A stretch of 64,000 bases of DNA from Bacilli bacterium (lineage in GTDB: Bacteria; Bacillota_I; Bacilli_A; RF39; UBA660). The stretch covers positions 1,986 to 65,985 of the forward strand of contig JAFXOW010000005.1 of the NCBI GenBank assembly GCA_017528315.1, written 5' to 3'. Made by a program: the position numbers and the translations under genes. Below are positions 8,428-41,700 of the stretch, one piece after another (within the stretch, counting starts at the first letter, position 1; every line of letters starts with the position of its first letter). The notes below the pieces were generated by a model. It saw only the letters and a program-made list of their open reading frames with translations, was not told the DNA's origin and ran no database searches.

Positions 8428-9281
8428 TGAGATTTTTAGTAACAGGAGTTAAAGGACAACTTGGATATGATATTGTAAGAGAACTTAAAAAAAGAGGATA
8501 CAAGGATATCTTAGAATTTGATAAGAATGATATGGATTTAACTAATGAACAAGAAGTATTTGATAGAATAACCGAAACCAAACCAGATGTAGTATTTCAT
8601 TGTGCTGCTTATACTGCCGTTGATAATGCTGAAGATAATTCTGATCTTTGTTATAAGGTAAATGTAGAAGGTACGAAATATTTAAGTGAAGCAACTAAGA
8701 ATATTGGAGCTAAACTTATCTATATAAGTACTGATTATGTATTTGATGGAGAAAAGCCTTATGGTGAAACATATGATGTAAGTGATCAAGTTAATCCTGA
8801 GAGTGTTTATGGAAAAACTAAATATGAAGGTGAACTTGAAGCAGCCAAAAATCCTAAACATTTTATAGTAAGAACTAGTTGGGTATTTGGAATAAATGGT
8901 AATAATTTTATTAAAACAATGCTTAAATTAAGTGAGACGAGGAATGAAATAAATGTTGTAAGTGACCAATTTGGAAGTCCAACTTATACAGTTGATTTAG
9001 CTAGATTGTTAGTTGATTTAGCAGAAACCGAAAAGTATGGATTATATCATGCTAATAATGAAGGATATACTAGTTGGGACGAATTTGCAAGAGAAATATT
9101 TAAAGTTTTTGGAAAAGATACTATTGTCAATAGTATTACAACAGATGAATATCCAACTAAAGCTAAACGACCTAAGAATTCATGCTTAAGTAAAGATTGT
9201 CTAGATAAAGAAGGATTTATGAGACTTCCTAGTTGGCAAGATGCAATCGAAAGATATAAAAAAGAAATGGAGGAATTATAA
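8427..9281 (+). CDS. rmlD: dTDP-4-dehydrorhamnose reductase
   Basis: GVKGQLG, HCAAYTAVD, STDYVFDG, YGKTK, SPTY. Confidence 0.96.
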   Translation: MRFLVTGVKGQLGYDIVRELKKRGYKDILEFDKNDMDLTNEQEVFDRITETKPDVVFHCAAYTAVDNAEDNSDLCYKVNVEGTKYLSEATKNIGAKLIYISTDYVFDGEKPYGETYDVSDQVNPESVYGKTKYEGELEAAKNPKHFIVRTSWVFGINGNNFIKTMLKLSETRNEINVVSDQFGSPTYTVDLARLLVDLAETEKYGLYHANNEGYTSWDEFAREIFKVFGKDTIVNSITTDEYPTKAKRPKNSCLSKDCLDKEGFMRLPSWQDAIERYKKEMEEL

Positions 9282-9282
9282 T

Positions 9283-10305
9283 ATGAAATTTTTAGTAACT
9301 GGAGGAGCCGGTTTTATTGGAAGCAATTATTTACAATATGTAGTAAATAAATATCCTGAGGATTACTTTGTATGTTTAGATGCCTTAACATATGCTGGTA
9401 ATTATAATAATATTAAAATGTTAGAGGATAAAGATAATTATAAATTTGTTAAAATGGATATTCGAGATAAAGAGACAATTTATGATTTATTTAGAAAAGA
9501 AAAATTTGATGTAGTAATTAATTTTGCTGCTGAATCTCATGTTGATAATTCTATTAAAAATCCTAATGTTTTTGCTGAGACAAATATTTTAGGAACCATG
9601 AATTTATTAAATGCTTTTAAAATGTTAAGAGATGAAGAAGGATATGAAATAGTTAGATATCATCAAGTATCAACAGATGAAGTATATGGAGATTTACCTT
9701 TAGATAGACCAGATTTGTTGTTTACCGAACAAACACCAATTCATACATCTAGTCCTTACTCATCATCAAAAGCTAGTGCAGATTTATTTGTAATGGCTTA
9801 TGCTAGAACATTTAAGATGCCTGTAACTATATCTCGTTGTTCTAATAACTATGGACCATATCAATTTCCAGAGAAGTTGATTCCAGTTGTAATTAGTAAA
9901 GCTTTAAAAAATGAAAATATTCCAGTTTATGGAAAAGGAGAAAATGTAAGAGATTGGATTCATGTTCATGACCATAATGTTGGAGTTGATATGATTGTAA
10001 GAAATGGTAGAAATGGTGAAGTATACAATTTAGGAGGACATTCTGAAAGAACTAATTTAGAAGTTGTTAAAACCATTCTTAATCAAATGGGAAAAAGTGA
10101 AGATTTAATTACGTATGTAACTGATAGACCTGGACATGATTTAAGGTATGCCATTGATTCAACTAAAACCGAAAAAGAACTTGGATGGAATAGAACTTAT
10201 AATTTTTCTGATGGTATTAAAGAAACTGTTGATTGGTATTTAAATAATCAAGAATGGATTGATAATATTTTATCAGGTGAATATAAAAATGCTTATAAAG
10301 GTTAG
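9283..10305 (+). CDS. rmlB: dTDP-glucose 4,6-dehydratase
   Basis: TGGAGFIGSN, AAESHVD, STDEVYG, PYSSSK, RCSNNYGP. Start moved to the ATG at 9283, after GGAGG. Confidence 0.97.
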   Translation: MKFLVTGGAGFIGSNYLQYVVNKYPEDYFVCLDALTYAGNYNNIKMLEDKDNYKFVKMDIRDKETIYDLFRKEKFDVVINFAAESHVDNSIKNPNVFAETNILGTMNLLNAFKMLRDEEGYEIVRYHQVSTDEVYGDLPLDRPDLLFTEQTPIHTSSPYSSSKASADLFVMAYARTFKMPVTISRCSNNYGPYQFPEKLIPVVISKALKNENIPVYGKGENVRDWIHVHDHNVGVDMIVRNGRNGEVYNLGGHSERTNLEVVKTILNQMGKSEDLITYVTDRPGHDLRYAIDSTKTEKELGWNRTYNFSDGIKETVDWYLNNQEWIDNILSGEYKNAYKG

Positions 10306-33861: not shown

Positions 33862-34647
33862 TTGGCTAAAAATAAAGTAGAACTTACAGGAGTAAATACA
33901 AATGATATAAAAGTTTTAAGTAGTGAAGAAACTAACAAACTTTTTCAAATATTAAAAACAGGTAATGAAAAAGGCCAAAAAGAAGCTAAAGAAAAACTTA
34001 TATATGGTAATTTAAAACTTGTTTTAAGTATATTAAAAAAATATACGAGTAAAACTGATAATTTAGATGATTTATTTCAAATAGGTGTAATTGGACTTAT
34101 TAAAGCAATAGATAACTTTAACATTGATTTAGGACTTAAACTTTCAACATATGCAATTCCTATGATAAGTGGTGAAATTAGAAGATATTTAAGAGATAAT
34201 CAGATGTTAAGAGTAAGTCGTAGTATGAAAGATTTGGCTTATAAGGCTATTATGAAGCGTGATGAATTAACTATTAAATTAGGATATGTTCCAAGTTACA
34301 GTATGGTTGCTTCTTCTCTTGGAGTAAGTGAGGTCGATGTTATAACTAGCATTGAAGCAATGTCAGATCCTGTTAGTATCTATGAACCAATTTATAATGA
34401 TGGAGGAGATACTATATATTTATATGAGCAACTAGAAGACAAAAGAAATGAAAAAGATTTAGAAACAAAGCTTGCTTTAAAAAAAGCAATTTTAGATTTA
34501 TCCAAAAGAGAACAAAATATTTTAGATATGAGATATGTAATAGGTAAAACCCAAATGGAAATAGCTGAAGAGTTAGGAATTAGTCAAGCTCAAGTATCTC
34601 GTCTGGAAAAAAATGCTATTAAAACACTTAAGAAAACATTAAAATAA
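33862..34647 (+). CDS. sigG: Forespore sigma factor SigG
   Basis: KNKVELTGVNT, GEIRRYLRDN..RVSRS, DPVSIYEPIYNDGGD, GKTQMEIAEELGISQAQVSRLEK closely match B. subtilis SigG from memory. TTG start. Confidence 0.92.
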   Translation: MAKNKVELTGVNTNDIKVLSSEETNKLFQILKTGNEKGQKEAKEKLIYGNLKLVLSILKKYTSKTDNLDDLFQIGVIGLIKAIDNFNIDLGLKLSTYAIPMISGEIRRYLRDNQMLRVSRSMKDLAYKAIMKRDELTIKLGYVPSYSMVASSLGVSEVDVITSIEAMSDPVSIYEPIYNDGGDTIYLYEQLEDKRNEKDLETKLALKKAILDLSKREQNILDMRYVIGKTQMEIAEELGISQAQVSRLEKNAIKTLKKTLK

Positions 34648-35876: not shown

Positions 35877-35905
35877 TTGACTTAAAAATATAATGATGTT
35901 ATTCT
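35877..35905 (+). promoter_or_regulatory. sigmaA-type promoter for the phosphoesterase pair
   Basis: TTGACT (35877-35882), 17 nt, TATTCT with a TGn extension. Confidence 0.55.
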
Positions 35906-36004
35906 TTTAATAGAGAATAGAGAGTGATAATGTGGCTAGTCAATTATTATTAAATTTTTTAATTAATTTTGAGGGAGTATTGTCCTCTTTTTTTTGGAGG
36001 GATT

Positions 36005-37000
36005 ATGGAAAAAATTGAAGAATTAGAAAAATTAAAAAAGTTAACAGAAAATGAAATAAGTTTAACAGAAGTAGCTAAAATTTTAGAAAAAAATAGTTAT
36101 CAAATACTTGGACTTTTACATGAATTAAGACTTCAAGGAATAAATATTGTTATTCAAAGAAGAGATGATGATATATACATGTATAATCATGGAGAAAGGG
36201 AATTAGAAAATAATAATAAATTTAATTTTTATACCAATGAATTTAATGAATTTAAATTTGTTGTAATTGCAGATACTAGAATCGGATCTAAACATCAACA
36301 ATTATCTATTTTAAATGATATTTATCAAAAAGCTTATGATATGGGATATATGAATGTATTTTTAGTTGGAAATATCTCAGAAGGACTTTATCCTTTAACC
36401 AATGTATATTCAGAAGATAATTTTTTAGATGATACTTTAGAACAGGTTGATTATATAGTTCAAAATTATCCTTTAGTAGAAGGAATGAAAACTTACTTTA
36501 TTACAGGACTTAAAGATGAAAAACATTTAAGAAATAATAAAATTAATTTAGGTAAAAGAATAAGTGATGCTAGATGCGATATGATATATTTAGGACATAA
36601 TTCTTGTAATGTTTTAATTGATAAAGTTAATGTATTACTTATTTCTACTCCTTTAAGTAAAACTTATACAGTGTCTTATAGACCAGAACAACAAATAAAT
36701 TCTTTTCGAAGTGAAGATAAACCCAATATTATGTTATTTGGTGGAGCTTTGCAACTTGAAAAATTTACTTATCGAAATGTTGCTTGTTTATCAATTCCTA
36801 GTGTCTGTGCTACTACACGTGAAATGAATGATAAAAGGTATTCTAATACGATTGGAGCTTGGTATGTAAGTTTAAAAACCGATAAATATGGTAATTTATT
36901 ATCACTAAATGCCATGGACTCTGTTTATTATCGTACAAATCCCGATGATTATATTAAAAGAAAAGTACTAAAGATTGGAGGGATTAATAATGGAAAGTAA
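36005..37000 (+). CDS. Degenerate calcineurin-like metallophosphoesterase with an N-terminal HTH-like domain (predicted pseudoenzyme)
   Basis: Aligns by eye with the next gene, but the metal ligands are lost: DTR, GNISEG, GLKDE, IST, GGALQ. Confidence 0.72.
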   Translation: MEKIEELEKLKKLTENEISLTEVAKILEKNSYQILGLLHELRLQGINIVIQRRDDDIYMYNHGERELENNNKFNFYTNEFNEFKFVVIADTRIGSKHQQLSILNDIYQKAYDMGYMNVFLVGNISEGLYPLTNVYSEDNFLDDTLEQVDYIVQNYPLVEGMKTYFITGLKDEKHLRNNKINLGKRISDARCDMIYLGHNSCNVLIDKVNVLLISTPLSKTYTVSYRPEQQINSFRSEDKPNIMLFGGALQLEKFTYRNVACLSIPSVCATTREMNDKRYSNTIGAWYVSLKTDKYGNLLSLNAMDSVYYRTNPDDYIKRKVLKIGGINNGK

Positions 37001-37997
37001 TAAAGATAATGTTAAAATGGATCAAATAGATAGATTTTATCGTTATATTAAAAATGGTATGAATGTTGAAGATTTTATGCAAAAATTTCATTTAAGTTAT
37101 AATGAATTAACAGGAATATTAGAATTATTTAGAATATATGGGCGAGTTGTTGATATAATAAAAAAAGAAGATGCACTTATTTTTGATAAGCCTATTACGA
37201 AAACAACATCAACTAAAAAGCCTGATATTGACTTTAAAAATTTAATTCACACGGAAATAGGAGTAGTATCTGATACTCATTTTGGAAATATCCATCAACA
37301 GATGCATTTATTAAATGATTTTTATAGAGAATGTTATAATCGTGGTATTACTATTATACTTCATTGTGGTGATTTAACTGACGGAAATTATTTAAATCGT
37401 CCGGAACAACCTCGTCAACAATTTTTACATGGTTTTGATGAACAAGTTGGCTATGTTGTTGATATGTATCCTGAAGTATCGGGTATTACTACGAAATATA
37501 TTTTAGGAAGTCATGACGAAACTCATTATAAAAATGGTCAAGCAACTGTAAGTAAATGGGTTTCAATGTGTCGAAGTGATATGGAATTTTTAGGCCAAGA
37601 TTTTGCTTCAATTAATATTAATGGAGTAAAAATATTTATGGATCATCCAGGAGGTGGAAGTGCCGCGTCAATTTCTTATAAACCTCAAAAAAGAATTGAA
37701 ATTTTAGAATCTAATTATAAACCTCAAATTCTCTTAATTGGTCATTATCATAAAAGTTATGCTTTTGTATATCGTAATGTTCATGGAATACAAGTTCCAT
37801 CCTTTTGCGATAAAACCCAATTTCAACAAAAACAAGGATTACTTAATGTTGTAGGTGCTTATATTTTAAATATATATTCTGATAAAAATGGGAATATTGA
37901 GTATTTTGAACCTGAAGAAATACTTTATGGTGAAAAAGATATGTGGGATGAAGGATTTAAAGATAAAAATAAAGTTAAAAAATTAGTAATTAGATAA
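36990..37997 (+). CDS. Calcineurin-like metallophosphoesterase with an N-terminal HTH-like domain (intact motifs)
   Basis: SDTHFG, CGDLTDG, GSHDE, MDH, GHYH. Confidence 0.85.
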   Translation: MESNKDNVKMDQIDRFYRYIKNGMNVEDFMQKFHLSYNELTGILELFRIYGRVVDIIKKEDALIFDKPITKTTSTKKPDIDFKNLIHTEIGVVSDTHFGNIHQQMHLLNDFYRECYNRGITIILHCGDLTDGNYLNRPEQPRQQFLHGFDEQVGYVVDMYPEVSGITTKYILGSHDETHYKNGQATVSKWVSMCRSDMEFLGQDFASININGVKIFMDHPGGGSAASISYKPQKRIEILESNYKPQILLIGHYHKSYAFVYRNVHGIQVPSFCDKTQFQQKQGLLNVVGAYILNIYSDKNGNIEYFEPEEILYGEKDMWDEGFKDKNKVKKLVIR

Positions 37998-38073: not shown

Positions 38074-38149
38074 GGCCTGTTGGTGAAGTGGTTAACACAT
38101 AGCCCTCTCAAGGCTACATTCATGGGTTCAAGTCCCATACAGGTCACCA
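38074..38149 (+). tRNA. tRNA-Glu(CTC)
   Basis: Acceptor stem GGCCTGT/ACAGGTC, anticodon arm TAGCC-CTCTCAA-GGCTA, T loop GGTTCAAGTCC, encoded CCA. Promoter TTGAAA-17-TAGAAT at 38007-38035. Confidence 0.95.
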
Positions 38150-38258
38150 ATTTTGAATTTAATCGAATTTTTACCTAAAGTTCGATTTTAGTATATATTA
38201 TTATATTTAGTATCAAAAATATTTTGACTTTTATGTATACTTATGATATTATGTATTT

Positions 38259-38373
38259 GTTGAGAGGAATCTCATATAATAAAAAAGGGGAAATACTTAA
38301 CTTGCCTTGTTGAGTACTTACCCTATAAAATAGTGTTAGTACTTAATCTAATGCAGATTGAGTACTATTTTTT
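38259..38373 (+). ncRNA. Candidate cis-antisense sRNA (type I antitoxin), locus 1; ends approximate
   Basis: TTGACT(38224-38229)-17-TATTAT promoter, no ORF, strong terminator TAGTACTTAATCT/AGATTGAGTACTA plus T run at 38337-38373. Overlaps the 3' end of a minus-strand peptide gene. Confidence 0.62.
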
Positions 38374-38452
38374 ATTATTTGAATCAATTGAGAAACAATT
38401 AATAAAATGATTATTAATATTAGAAATAAGATTAGTAAATTTTTTTCTTCAT
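38343..38452 (-). pseudogene. Small hydrophobic peptide gene (candidate type I toxin, 36 aa) interrupted by a one-base frameshift in an A7 run
   Basis: Promoter TTGTAT-18-TGcTATAAT, SD AAGGAGG, ATG at 38452. With A8 it reads MKKKNLLILFLILIIILLIVSQLIQIIKNSTQSALD*; as sequenced it reads MKKKIY*. Confidence 0.6.
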
Positions 38453-38714
38453 AATATCAAGCCTCCTTCCTTTTAGAAGTCGGCAAGTACTCAACAGTCA
38501 GTATTTCCTGTAATCATTATAGCACATATTAAAATTATAATACAATACATTTTTGTCATTTTATAAAAATGTTTTTTTTATAATTATCATAAAAAATAAT
38601 GAATTATTTTATTGAATTTTTATTTTTTTACATTTTATTTACACAATACATAATTTGACATTTTACTTATTTATTATTCTTTGATATACTTATTATAAGA
38701 ATAGAGGTGGTAAA

Positions 38715-41700
38715 ATGAAAAAATATATAATAATTATTAATATATTATTCTTTTTATGCATCTTAAATACTAAGGCTTTAACTTATAACGAAATAAAGGG
38801 AAGAAGTGAATGTAATAATTTTGAAGTAGCTGAAGCTATGAGTGATAAAAGTTTAAAACATTATGAATGTTTTGATAATTATGATTATGCAAAAAGTTAT
38901 ATGAATAATAATAGCAATGAAAATTTAGTAATACTTGAAAGAAGTAATAATTTAACTAGAATAATAGATGCTAAACTTGCTCTTGTTTATATGGATATTG
39001 GAGAAGAACTAACTTATTATTATAAAAATAGTAATTTAACGGGTTATATAACTTATATGAATCATCAAGGAACTTATGGTGCAACTGATGGAGTATTTTT
39101 AGAATTAAATTATTCAAATCATGCAATAAAAATGAAAACTAATGGAGTAGTTGGATGGACTAGAGACGGTAATTATAAAATAATACCTCTTAATTTTGTA
39201 GGAACAACTAGTTACTATCAAGTAACTAATGATGAATTATTACATTATTATTCTAAGGATATACAGACTTCTTACTCAAGTTATGGAAGAGCTATTGATA
39301 AAAAACCAAATAGTCTAAATACTGGTAAATATTATAGTTATGATGGTAATTATTTTTATAATAATTTAAGAAGCTTAATGATCGATTATAAAAATGGAAA
39401 CTATAATAACAGTGTTAATCGTGATAATCCCTATTATAATTACTATATGTATCTACCTCATCGAGGAAGAAGTAATTATACAGCTGATGATATAGATGCC
39501 TATCTAAAGAATACTAAAAATTTAATTGGTACTATTTATGGAAAACAATATGTTTATAGATATTCCAATATGTATGGAACAGGAATTTTCTTTAAGTCTA
39601 GTGAAACTTTATATGGAGGAAATGCTATCTTAATGATGTCACTTGCAACTAATGAAAGTGCTTTAGGACAGAGTAGAATAGCTATTGACAAAAATAATTT
39701 ATTTGGACATGCAGCCTATGATTCAAGTGCTTACTCATCAGCAACCGGATATCTAAATCCTTATCAAAGTATAATTGGTCATGCTAAAAGTTATATTAAT
39801 TGTGGTTATGCTAATCCAAATGATTCAAGATATTATGGATCTAATATGGGTAATAAAAGTAGTGGCATGAATATTATGTATGCAAGTGATCCAGTTTGGG
39901 GAGAAAAAGCAGCTAATTATTATTACTTATTTGATAAAGATAATGGTTATTTAGATTATAATTATTATCAATTAGGAATTACTACTGTTGATAGTGTTAA
40001 TGTCAGAACAGAACCAAATCTTACAAGTAGTATTCCCTTTAATTTAAAACATGAGCGAGTTCCCGTTATAATTCTTGGAGAAGTAAATGGTACTAGTGTA
40101 AATGGTAGTACTAAATGGTATAAAATAGTAAGTGATGCTAATCTAACAGTTGATAGAACTAGTATTCAGAGTTGTAGTTATACGAATTACTATAATTATA
40201 ATTCTTATGTTTATGTTCATTCATCATTTATCAAAAAAATTAATACTTCTTCAAATGGTAAATACAATGATATAAATACTTTAAATGATAAAAATATTAA
40301 ATATCAAGAATATTCAAGTGGAGCATCTTATACTCCGAAAATTGGAAAAATTAAAAATGATACCTATGTCTATGATACAGCAACCATGAGTGTTAAAACT
40401 GGAAGTATAGCTAAAACTTCCACAATGGTTCCTGTTTTCATGGAAGCGTCAATCAATGGAAAAGTAGTAGCTTATTTAATTGAAACAGATTTTAGTAAAA
40501 ATCAAAAAGGTTGGATAGATGCATCGAGTTTAGAATTTATAACAAAAGATTTACTAAAAGTAAATGTTACAGCTAATGGTGATTATTTAAATGTTTTTAA
40601 TACTCCAGGTGGAAGTGTACTTGAAAGTATATATGATGGAACTTTTGCAGTTATTTTAGATAAAACAACTTATAATAATGAACTATGGTTAAAAATTAAT
40701 TATAATTTAAATAATGGAACTGCTTGGATAAATACTAATATTTCAAGTAGTAAAGGAAGTCTTGAATATACCTTAAATAATATTGGAAATAGTAAACCTG
40801 AAATAATTATTGAAGACTTAATGATGTTTAAAGGAGGAGAGATAAATCCTTTAGATCATGTAAGAGCTATTGATAATGAAGATGGAGATATTACTAATAA
40901 AGTTAAAATAACTAAAAATACTATTAATACAGACGTAATAGGTGAATATGAAGTTACTTTCCAAGTAACAGATTCAAATAATCAAACTGTAACTAAAACT
41001 ATTAAAGTTTATGTATTAGATTTTAAAGAAGGAGAACCACTTTTCTATTTTGAATCTTTAAAACATATAAGTGATACTAAATTTGAAGTTAAAGGATTTT
41101 TAGGTGTTAAAGGAATGGATAATACTACGATGAGTCATCAACTTGCTTTTGTAAACGAAGATGATGAAAATAAAGTATATTTATTTGATTTAGATGAAAA
41201 CTCAAATCCTCCATTTAAAATGTCAAGTTTAGATGATGATAAATCATATAATTATCAAGGTGGTTGGTTTAAAGGAGAAATAGATTTATCAAAAGCTAAT
41301 ATTCCTGAAGGAAATTATTATATTGCTGTATTTGCATATAACTATGAAACAGGTTATTATACAGTTGACTATTATACTAACATTGCATATCTTGATATGC
41401 CAAGAAGAATAAATGCAAGTAGTCGTGGGATATCCTTTGATATTGATTATGGATTACCAGATAGTCCAATGCTTGTTACTATAAGAAATAATGGACTACT
41501 TAGTTATGAAACACCAACATCTTTTGATCCAACTTATAATTTCTTTAATGAATTAAAGATTACTAATAATACTTTAAGTATTACAGGAACAAGTCATAGT
41601 GCTTATGTTTCATATTCTAAAACTGATGATGTAAAAAGAGAAATAGTTTTTGAAAATATTACTACTTATGAAAGATTTAATTATACTTTATCTTATATTG

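Follow-up and report, generated by a model that had tools for sequence, protein, structure and literature searches.

Two overlapping genes, here termed gene A and gene B, lie within a 64,000-nt stretch of contig JAFXOW010000005.1 from a Bacilli bacterium (the whole stretch is called the window, and window positions are used throughout). They encode paralogous proteins in which an N-terminal winged helix-turn-helix (wHTH) domain precedes a calcineurin-like metallophosphoesterase (MPE) domain; gene B retains the catalytic motifs of the superfamily, whereas gene A has lost nearly all of its metal ligands and is nevertheless held under purifying selection much as its live partner is. We propose, at what we judge to be about an even chance, that the two products form an obligate 1:1 pseudo-dimeric wHTH–MPE enzyme with one catalytic site, in B, while A helps to hold the substrate or to shape that site; the enzyme would act on nucleic-acid ends in a housekeeping role, its expression gated by a leader upstream of gene A.

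A tandem of live and dead paralogs

The original prediction made from this DNA described two paralogs of ~330 amino acids with an 11-nt overlap and the same ribosome-binding-site context. This description was borne out: the proteins, 331 and 335 amino acids long, align with 26% identity over 296 amino acids (BLASTP, E=4e-42), and the genes overlap at 36990-37000, as read from the open reading frame (ORF) coordinates (Table 1). Each gene start is marked by the 12-mer TTGGAGGGATTA, at 35994 and 36975, and these are its only two copies in the 64-kb window, where none would be expected by chance. The copy at 36975 provides a Shine–Dalgarno (SD) sequence 7 nt ahead of the gene B ATG (36990) and lies inside the end of gene A, indicating that translation of A and B is coupled. 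A mechanically derived ORF list starts gene B at TTG 36975 instead; the orthologs, 332-335 amino acids long, fit ATG 36990.

Table 1. Positions in the window of the gene pair, its leader elements and the adjacent tRNA gene
Feature	Position	Strand	Remarks
Promoter-like site	35877..35905	+	TTGACT, 17 nt, TATTCT, with TG; consensus scan only, weak
Leader/attenuator	35916..36004	+	SD-like motif, short ORF, hairpin, T8, gene A SD
SD-like motif AATAGAGAGTGATA	35916-35929	+	extended motif; form shared with most relatives (A)TAGGGAGTGAT
Short leader ORF	35930-35953	+	ATG to TAA, MWLVNYY
Hairpin and T8	35971-35987 and 35988-35995	+	terminator-like match
Gene A SD GGAGGG	35996-36001	+	immediately 3' of the T-run
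Gene A	36005..37000	+	331 amino acids; wHTH ~36005-36190, dead MPE-like domain ~36240-36997
Second TTGGAGGGATTA copy	36975..36986	+	within gene A 3' end; SD for gene B
Gene B	36990..37997	+	335 amino acids; wHTH ~37023-37199, MPE ~37245-37934, then basic C-terminal tail
tRNA-Glu(CTC)	38074..38149	+	downstream neighbour, outside the system

Gene B carries the five calcineurin-like motifs as DTH (37272-37280), GDLTDG, GSHDE, DHPGGG and GHYH. These correspond to D95/H97, G127/D128, G173-S-H175-D176, H219 and G251-H252-x-H254, which are invariant in 63 orthologs (the Bacilli set defined below), so that none of the residues D95, H97, D128, H175, D176, H219, H252 and H254 varies. The deviation is in motif III, where Asn is replaced by Ser (GSHD) in 61 of the 63, at S174 (37509-37511) in the window; the same variant is found in phage L080, and more distant single-copy relatives have GNHD, the Asn of which normally binds metal. 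Gene B scores above the Pfam gathering thresholds for PF12850 (Metallophos_2, 35.6 bits, cut-off 27) and PF00149 (Metallophos, 33.9 bits, cut-off 21.5), and its homologs number in the hundreds (70-86% identity), all from metagenome-assembled genomes (MAGs) of uncultured gut 'Bacilli bacterium'. Judged by sequence, gene B is a member of the calcineurin-like MPE superfamily with one motif deviation, the motif III Ser.

At the positions of these motifs gene A reads DTR, GNISEG (hence GN), GLKDE, ISTP and GGALQ, and it has no Pfam match, so that both the live and the dead motif states read as had been claimed. His(I) has become Arg, Asp(II) Asn, His(III) Lys and His(IV) Ser in the window copy, and GHxH has become GGAL. 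The same losses recur across 63 orthologs of A, with His(I) replaced by Arg in 57, Asp(II) by Asn in 54 and GHxH by GGxL in 54 to 61, while His(III) is Lys or variable and His(IV) is Asn or Ser; the Asp residues of motifs I and III are each retained in 63/63 and the His that follows motif III in 62/63. By its motifs gene A is in the MPE superfamily by descent only and not as an active enzyme.

What replaced the ligands is itself conserved. Gene A has hundreds of homologs (65-88% identity) in uncultured gut 'Bacilli bacterium' MAGs, often on the same contigs as homologs of B, and a 94-row alignment of natural A–B fusions contains about as many near-invariant positions in A as in B. Many of those in A fall within the former motifs (DTRxGSKxQQ, CGN, GxxDxxH, KTYTxSYRxQQ, RSEDKPD and GGxxQ). 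This pattern suggests a pocket that has been remodelled but conserved, that would not bind metal and in which basic side chains would stand in place of the metals; such a pocket would be suited to binding phosphate without cleavage.

Co-conservation, fusion and purifying selection

A scan of one genome per species gave 76 loci, and the 63 in which a relative of B reached 39% identity or more were taken as the Bacilli set. They derive from rabbit, ruminant and human gut MAGs, whose labels include Candidatus Coprovivens, Clostridium sp. CAG:302, Firmicutes bacterium CAG:884, 'Erysipelotrichaceae' and 'Mycoplasmatota'. The locus search used a narrow alignment; a diverse 15-sequence alignment had no conserved stretch. 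Synteny was determined by tblastn and ORF tracing on the 63 loci and L001, 64 in all, and gene A lies directly upstream of gene B in 63 of them. Absence of the degenerate copy from relatives, which the original prediction had named as a sign against a partnership, was therefore not what the neighbourhoods revealed.

Among 62 complete pairs, 46 are split and 16 fused, and the pair at L054 reaches the contig end. The two genes of the split pairs are separated by -20 to +13 nt in 45 of the 46; the value of -56 nt at L045 is an artefact of the start codon picked. The fused pairs, from 16 species, are single ORFs of 661-685 amino acids, always in the order A then B. A search from one fusion found >100 further fused protein clusters (661-711 amino acids), and a neighbour-joining tree of the B parts, the only tree built, scatters the fused forms over four or more clades amid split forms. 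These repeated fusions argue that the partnership matters. Distant fused proteins with a dead and a live half (P0265, P0305, P0315, P0382 and P0298; 23-31% identity) occur in other small genomes, where the surrounding genes are ribosomal-protein, tRNA-modification and nucleotide genes. The homologous protein clusters are all named 'hypothetical' or 'metallophosphoesterase family protein'.

In another tandem MPE protein, P0253 (640 amino acids), a partly degenerate MPE domain comes before an intact one, and coiled-coil-like segments ahead of them take the place of the wHTH domains; on this domain make-up the protein is another solution to the tandem design.

The ratio of nonsynonymous to synonymous substitution rates (dN/dS, Nei-Gojobori, 54 locus pairs) was 0.01-0.25 for A and 0.01-0.15 for B, and for unsaturated pairs (dS<0.5) it was 0.014-0.16 and 0.013-0.07, respectively. 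These ratios indicate that both genes are under purifying selection, A similarly to B, and the dead copy, for which this comparison had been suggested as a check on neutral decay, evolves under constraint. That gene A is a decaying duplicate without function would fit the loss of nearly all its metal ligands and of any Pfam match, yet its full length in 63 loci, low dN/dS, 65-88% identity across hundreds of clusters, abundance of near-invariant positions and repeated fusion to B refute this explanation, to which we assign virtually no probability.

By the Rosetta-stone criterion, two genes are partners when some genomes have them fused and others keep them adjacent and conserved together, and the behaviour of A and B supports an obligate heteromer of paralogs. 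A heteromeric enzyme with the dead copy as a functional partner was the central proposal of the original prediction, and it gains support from synteny, coupling, fusion, selection and the conserved pocket of A alike.

Fold and nearest relatives

A natural A–B fusion was modelled with AlphaFold from the 94-row alignment, giving a pLDDT of 87.1 and a pTM of 0.78; a single-sequence attempt reached a pLDDT of only 34. The order in the model is wHTH-MPE-wHTH-MPE, each half comprising a winged helix (three helices and a beta hairpin), a short linker and an MPE domain. The HTH-like N-terminal domains seen earlier in the sequence are thus winged helices in the predicted structure.

Three independent comparisons converged on DP1, the small subunit of archaeal DNA polymerase PolD. 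The sole notable NCBIfam match was the DP1 equivalog PRK04036 (32.7 bits against a cut-off of 445). A 15-sequence profile, searched against the sequences of the Protein Data Bank (PDB), retrieved DP1 chains only (E 1e-3 to 3e-2), with GHxH...YRxV...QTxFQK as the common stretch. The top nine Foldseek matches of the model in the PDB were likewise DP1 (E=3e-8 to 5e-7), followed by MJ0936 (9e-7; template modelling (TM) score 0.72 to 1s3l), purple acid phosphatase, Vps29, Mre11 (1e-5), Rv0805, SbcD and LpxH. Matches were also found to PHROG 7339, annotated 'DNA repair exonuclease', and to 'SbcD-like' PHROGs. The nearest solved relative of the pair is, on these sequence and model comparisons, the phosphoesterase domain of PolD DP1.

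An oligonucleotide/oligosaccharide-binding (OB) fold is not present in the model, in which the wHTH is joined to the MPE domain by a short linker that leaves no room for one in ~335 amino acids, and no Pfam DNA_pol_E_B match was obtained at E<=0.1. Because the OB fold is missing and the cut-offs are missed, the proteins are not members of the DP1/B-subunit family but only its closest structural kin. No DP2 or PolB partner gene adjoins the pair in the 63 loci. Separately, L076 was considered as a possible DP1 and rejected, being an MJ0936-like protein of 172 amino acids.

Phage relatives and inteins

Viral homologs are single-copy and have an N-terminal extension, a wHTH and an active MPE domain. 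In L081 (1100-2221), L082 (1298-2386), L087 (6001-7161) and L088 (2044-3204), which represent three phage lineages, the homolog opens the packaging module and is followed by a small ORF, TerL and the portal gene; the usual occupant of this slot is a small terminase or HNH-type helper nuclease. The homolog of Halorubrum tailed virus BLv36 (ORF43; L086 5770-6930) stands between the portal and capsid genes of the head module, and this virus was the sole match when B was searched by tblastn against GenBank phages at E<=1e-5. A plasmid collection gave no match. The closest phage homolog, 42% identical to B, is that of L080, placed after the lysin and followed by a dATP/dGTP-diphosphohydrolase-like (dGTP_diPhyd_N) protein and then an NT5C-like protein (neighbours at 8976-9850); the L082 homolog is followed by the same diphosphohydrolase-like neighbour (2383-2904). 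Structural matches in BFVD include phage proteins named 'DNA polymerase II small subunit'.

Four relatives (P0263, P0352, P0388 and BFVD A0A8S5P6X8) carry a Hint/LAGLIDADG-type intein just ahead of SYKxQ (S-Y-K/R-x-Q), between MPE motifs IV and V, a position that points to this motif being functionally critical. Inteins favour conserved sites of DNA-handling proteins.

The viral homologs raise the alternative that the pair is a domesticated phage gene serving anti-phage defence or interference with phage DNA packaging, as placement upstream of TerL, the head-module gene of the archaeal virus and the closeness of the L080 homolog would all allow. We consider this unlikely. A search of PADLOC-DB v2 returned zero defence families at E<=1 for either gene, the pair is present as one copy at a locus with housekeeping neighbours, strong purifying selection acts on both genes across a divergence of 39-85% identity, and the locus is flanked by neither an island nor a mobile element. 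A defence role had been offered as one possibility in the original prediction; with variable and housekeeping neighbours, no PADLOC match and no toxin–antitoxin (TA) pair beside the genes, we do not uphold it.

A second alternative is that the proteins are DNA-binding regulators or recombination accessory factors, with catalysis secondary and the wHTH perhaps autoregulating the operon. The modelled N-terminal wHTH domains are compatible with this, a serine recombinase lies ~2 kb from the homolog in L090, and there is precedent in Bxb1 gp47, a mycobacteriophage recombination directionality factor of MPE fold whose catalysis is unproven and whose family has inteins beside a conserved MPE motif (PMC5050341). 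However, none of the eight catalytic or metal residues of B varies among the 63 orthologs, which suggests selection for catalysis, and no integrase lies near the window's pair or at most loci; we regard this alternative as very unlikely.

A candidate leader attenuator upstream of gene A

The region between the weak promoter-like site and gene A contains an SD-like motif, a short ORF, a terminator-like hairpin with a T-run and the SD of gene A (Table 1). The same layout precedes gene A in L001, L004-L017, L021-L058 and L062-L064. The leader ORF of the relatives has 13-24 codons and its peptide is not conserved. A terminator was found by strict criteria in 35 of 58 leaders, and several more are imperfect by eye. 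The leader-ORF stop falls -8 to +18 nt from the 5' edge of the hairpin in 27 of 35 leaders, compared with 3/35 and 9/35 in control frames.

Leaders fold more stably than dinucleotide shuffles of themselves (mean z -3.3; 37 of 46 below -2), and in 40 of the 46 the SD-like motif is paired, its partner being an anti-SD-like segment inside the short ORF. Covariation was assessed by duplex energies rather than by pair counts because the MAFFT alignment of the leaders misregistered the 3' arm of hairpin 1. P1 duplexes averaged -10.6 kcal/mol for cognate and -7.6 kcal/mol for non-cognate partners (p=7e-7), showing that the anti-SD-like segment changes in step with the SD-like motif. No Rfam match was found for the leaders of the window and eight relatives. 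The copy in the window is not typical: 20 nt separate the end of its ORF from the hairpin, which is weak (5 bp), its z is only -1.3, and its SD-like motif has a second possible partner in the 3' arm of that hairpin.

This layout makes the leader a candidate for a new transcription attenuator of the ribosome-mediated kind. On reaching the end of the leader ORF, a ribosome would cover the 5' arm of the terminator, whereas without translation both hairpins would form and transcription would stop. In having an ORF with a strong SD that ends at or in the 5' arm of a terminator ahead of the gene, with alternative pairings possible, the leader resembles those of pyrBI, pyrE and ampC of E. coli and the antibiotic-responsive bmrB and vmlR leaders of Firmicutes. 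It differs from these in that its peptide is not conserved, its own SD is sequestered in the first hairpin by the anti-SD-like segment and it is not in Rfam.

Proposed mechanism and its main rival

Taken together, we suggest that the two genes descend from a duplicated single-copy enzyme, presumably a homodimer, of a kind that phages still have. The metal site supplied by gene B would be binuclear, of the compact MJ0936/DP1 type, while A, with Arg, Asn, Lys, Gly and Leu for metal ligands, would hold or position a phosphate-bearing substrate or shape the site of B, and would not cut. The substrate would most likely be a nucleic-acid end, and the pair would then be either an exo- or endonuclease resembling DP1 and Mre11 or a phosphodiesterase that heals ends; its wHTH domains would serve for docking, either to nucleic acid or to a partner protein. 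Its role would be housekeeping in small-genome gut Bacilli, and transcription of the operon would be gated by the leader ORF and intrinsic terminator, tying expression to leader translation.

No neighbour is conserved across the 63 Bacilli loci, which argues against an operon partner as well as against a defence island. The commonest neighbour, directly upstream in 19/63 loci (13+6; for example L040 and L005), is a small HAD/NT5C-like protein; Pfam NT5C backs the group of six, and the group of 13 has a DxDGV motif only. Adjacency to nucleotidase or diphosphohydrolase genes is thus recurrent, not universal, and hints at a link with the deoxynucleotide pool.

This neighbour belongs to the evidence for the main rival to our proposal, that the pair is a phosphodiesterase or pyrophosphatase of small-molecule nucleotides (cyclic or linear (di)nucleotides, Ap4A, or dNTP/dNMP turnover) with the dead subunit as an allosteric nucleotide sensor. 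The Metallophos_2 (MJ0936/YfcE type) match and the TM score to MJ0936 fit such an enzyme, as do the NT5C-like and diphosphohydrolase-like genes beside the homologs of L080 and L082, and the leader is reminiscent of the UTP- or translation-coupled attenuators of pyrBI and pyrE. Two wHTH domains per complex, terminase and portal placement and inteins are, on the other hand, more typical of DNA-handling proteins; DP1 is the top match by three independent methods; and the nucleotidase neighbour is missing at most loci and lies outside the attenuator-delimited unit. We therefore hold the nucleotide enzyme to be a possible account of the pair, clearly less probable than action on nucleic-acid ends.

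Several observations weigh against our proposal. The Ser in place of the motif III Asn may make metal site 2 of B atypical; basic residues are few in the third wHTH helix, which makes DNA binding uncertain; and the NT5C-like and dATP/dGTP-diphosphohydrolase-like neighbours in some loci point to nucleotide metabolism. The likeness to DP1 is also modest, with a profile E of 1e-3 and Foldseek values only ~10-30-fold better than those of MJ0936, itself a phosphodiesterase without a known natural substrate.

Flanking features in the window

A tRNA gene and a TA-like locus had been noted beside the pair. The former is confirmed as tRNA-Glu(CTC), but not the latter, as the DNA beyond it (38150-38715) holds no ORF >29 amino acids and no Rfam match. 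This 565-nt AT-rich spacer contains a terminator-like hairpin of 13 bp (38337-38367) and an inverted repeat of 15 nt (38308-38322 / 38482-38496); it may represent a small RNA or some remnant, but it is no TA pair. In relatives no tRNA gene adjoins the pair, and with variable neighbours and no TA pair we found nothing to sustain a functional link to either element.

Other nearby genes, which from their translations we take to encode RNase HII, cytidine deaminase, Era, RecO, a glycosyltransferase, a large secreted protein and an ABC transporter, are accompanied by a sigma-70-family factor and an LD-carboxypeptidase that Pfam confirms. The sigma factor (33862-34647, 261 amino acids), two genes upstream of the pair, has regions 2, 3 and 4 only and looks to be of the sporulation or alternative type. 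Related uncultured Bacilli orders contain sporulating and non-sporulating species, and some RFN20 members reassign AGG or CGG codons (PMC10868615, PMC8629427). Among the read sets matched, the sequence is present only in gut DNA metagenomes.

Comparison with known systems

The original prediction knew of no characterised system of this design, and that statement holds up within PADLOC, NCBIfam, Pfam, the PDB and the literature searched: PADLOC gave none, NCBIfam and Pfam matches were generic or sub-threshold, no PDB sequence match was better than E=1e-3, and literature searches found no paper describing a wHTH–MPE pair. The genes represent a family, so far uncharacterised, whose members are conserved among uncultured gut Bacilli, present in other small-genome bacteria and common to their phages, and which comes with a putative, unannotated leader-ORF attenuator. 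If our proposal is correct, they would be a clean natural pair of enzyme and pseudoenzyme derived from paralogs, and could reveal a missing step of nucleic-acid or nucleotide processing in reduced genomes. With every carrier uncultured, the pair lends itself to heterologous biochemistry.

MJ0936- and YfcE-type enzymes (Metallophos_2) share with the pair a compact MPE core, as the PF12850 match and the superposition on 1s3l indicate, and they also oligomerise. They are, however, single-domain proteins of ~165-185 amino acids with neither wHTH nor dead paralog, and with natural substrates unknown there is no function to transfer. Mre11 and SbcD have the MPE fold with the same five motifs and act as dimers on DNA ends, but as homodimers with two active sites, and the pair lacks their capping domain. 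Its domains are wHTH and MPE only, and no adjacent Rad50/SbcC or recurrent large ATPase was found among the neighbours in the 63 loci.

Precedents for an MPE fold put to other uses are Vps29 and Bxb1 gp47. Vps29, recovered by Foldseek, is a retromer subunit in which the fold is retained as a non-catalytic scaffold, although it is eukaryotic and its partners are unrelated proteins rather than an active paralog. Bxb1 gp47 is, like the viral relatives of the pair, a phage-borne MPE-fold protein with inteins that acts in DNA transactions, but its family has neither the wHTH nor the tandem dead/live design.

The closest parallel is DP1, the Mre11-like 3'-5' proofreading exonuclease of PolD, in which, as here, a small N-terminal helical domain precedes the phosphoesterase domain. 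The B-subunits of eukaryotic Pol alpha, delta and epsilon are its inactivated relatives, and the DP1/B-subunit family includes live (DP1) and dead (B-subunit and some archaeal DP1) versions as partners in complexes (PMC7544198). The present pair would extend DP1-like phosphoesterases beyond archaea. A bolder reading, which we consider unlikely, is that wHTH–MPE proteins are a bacterial and viral sister group of DP1 and the B-subunits, a DP1-like exonuclease module that small-genome bacteria use as a live/dead pseudo-dimer in replication or DNA-end processing and that phages have beside the packaging motor, with expression set by an undescribed ribosome-sensing attenuator. Were this true, the live/dead split between archaeal DP1 and the eukaryotic B-subunits would have an independent bacterial parallel, and DP1-type nucleases would not be confined to archaea. 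The arrangement would still differ from that of DP1: these bacteria have no known DP2 or PolB partner, and the dead copy would have the live one as its partner.

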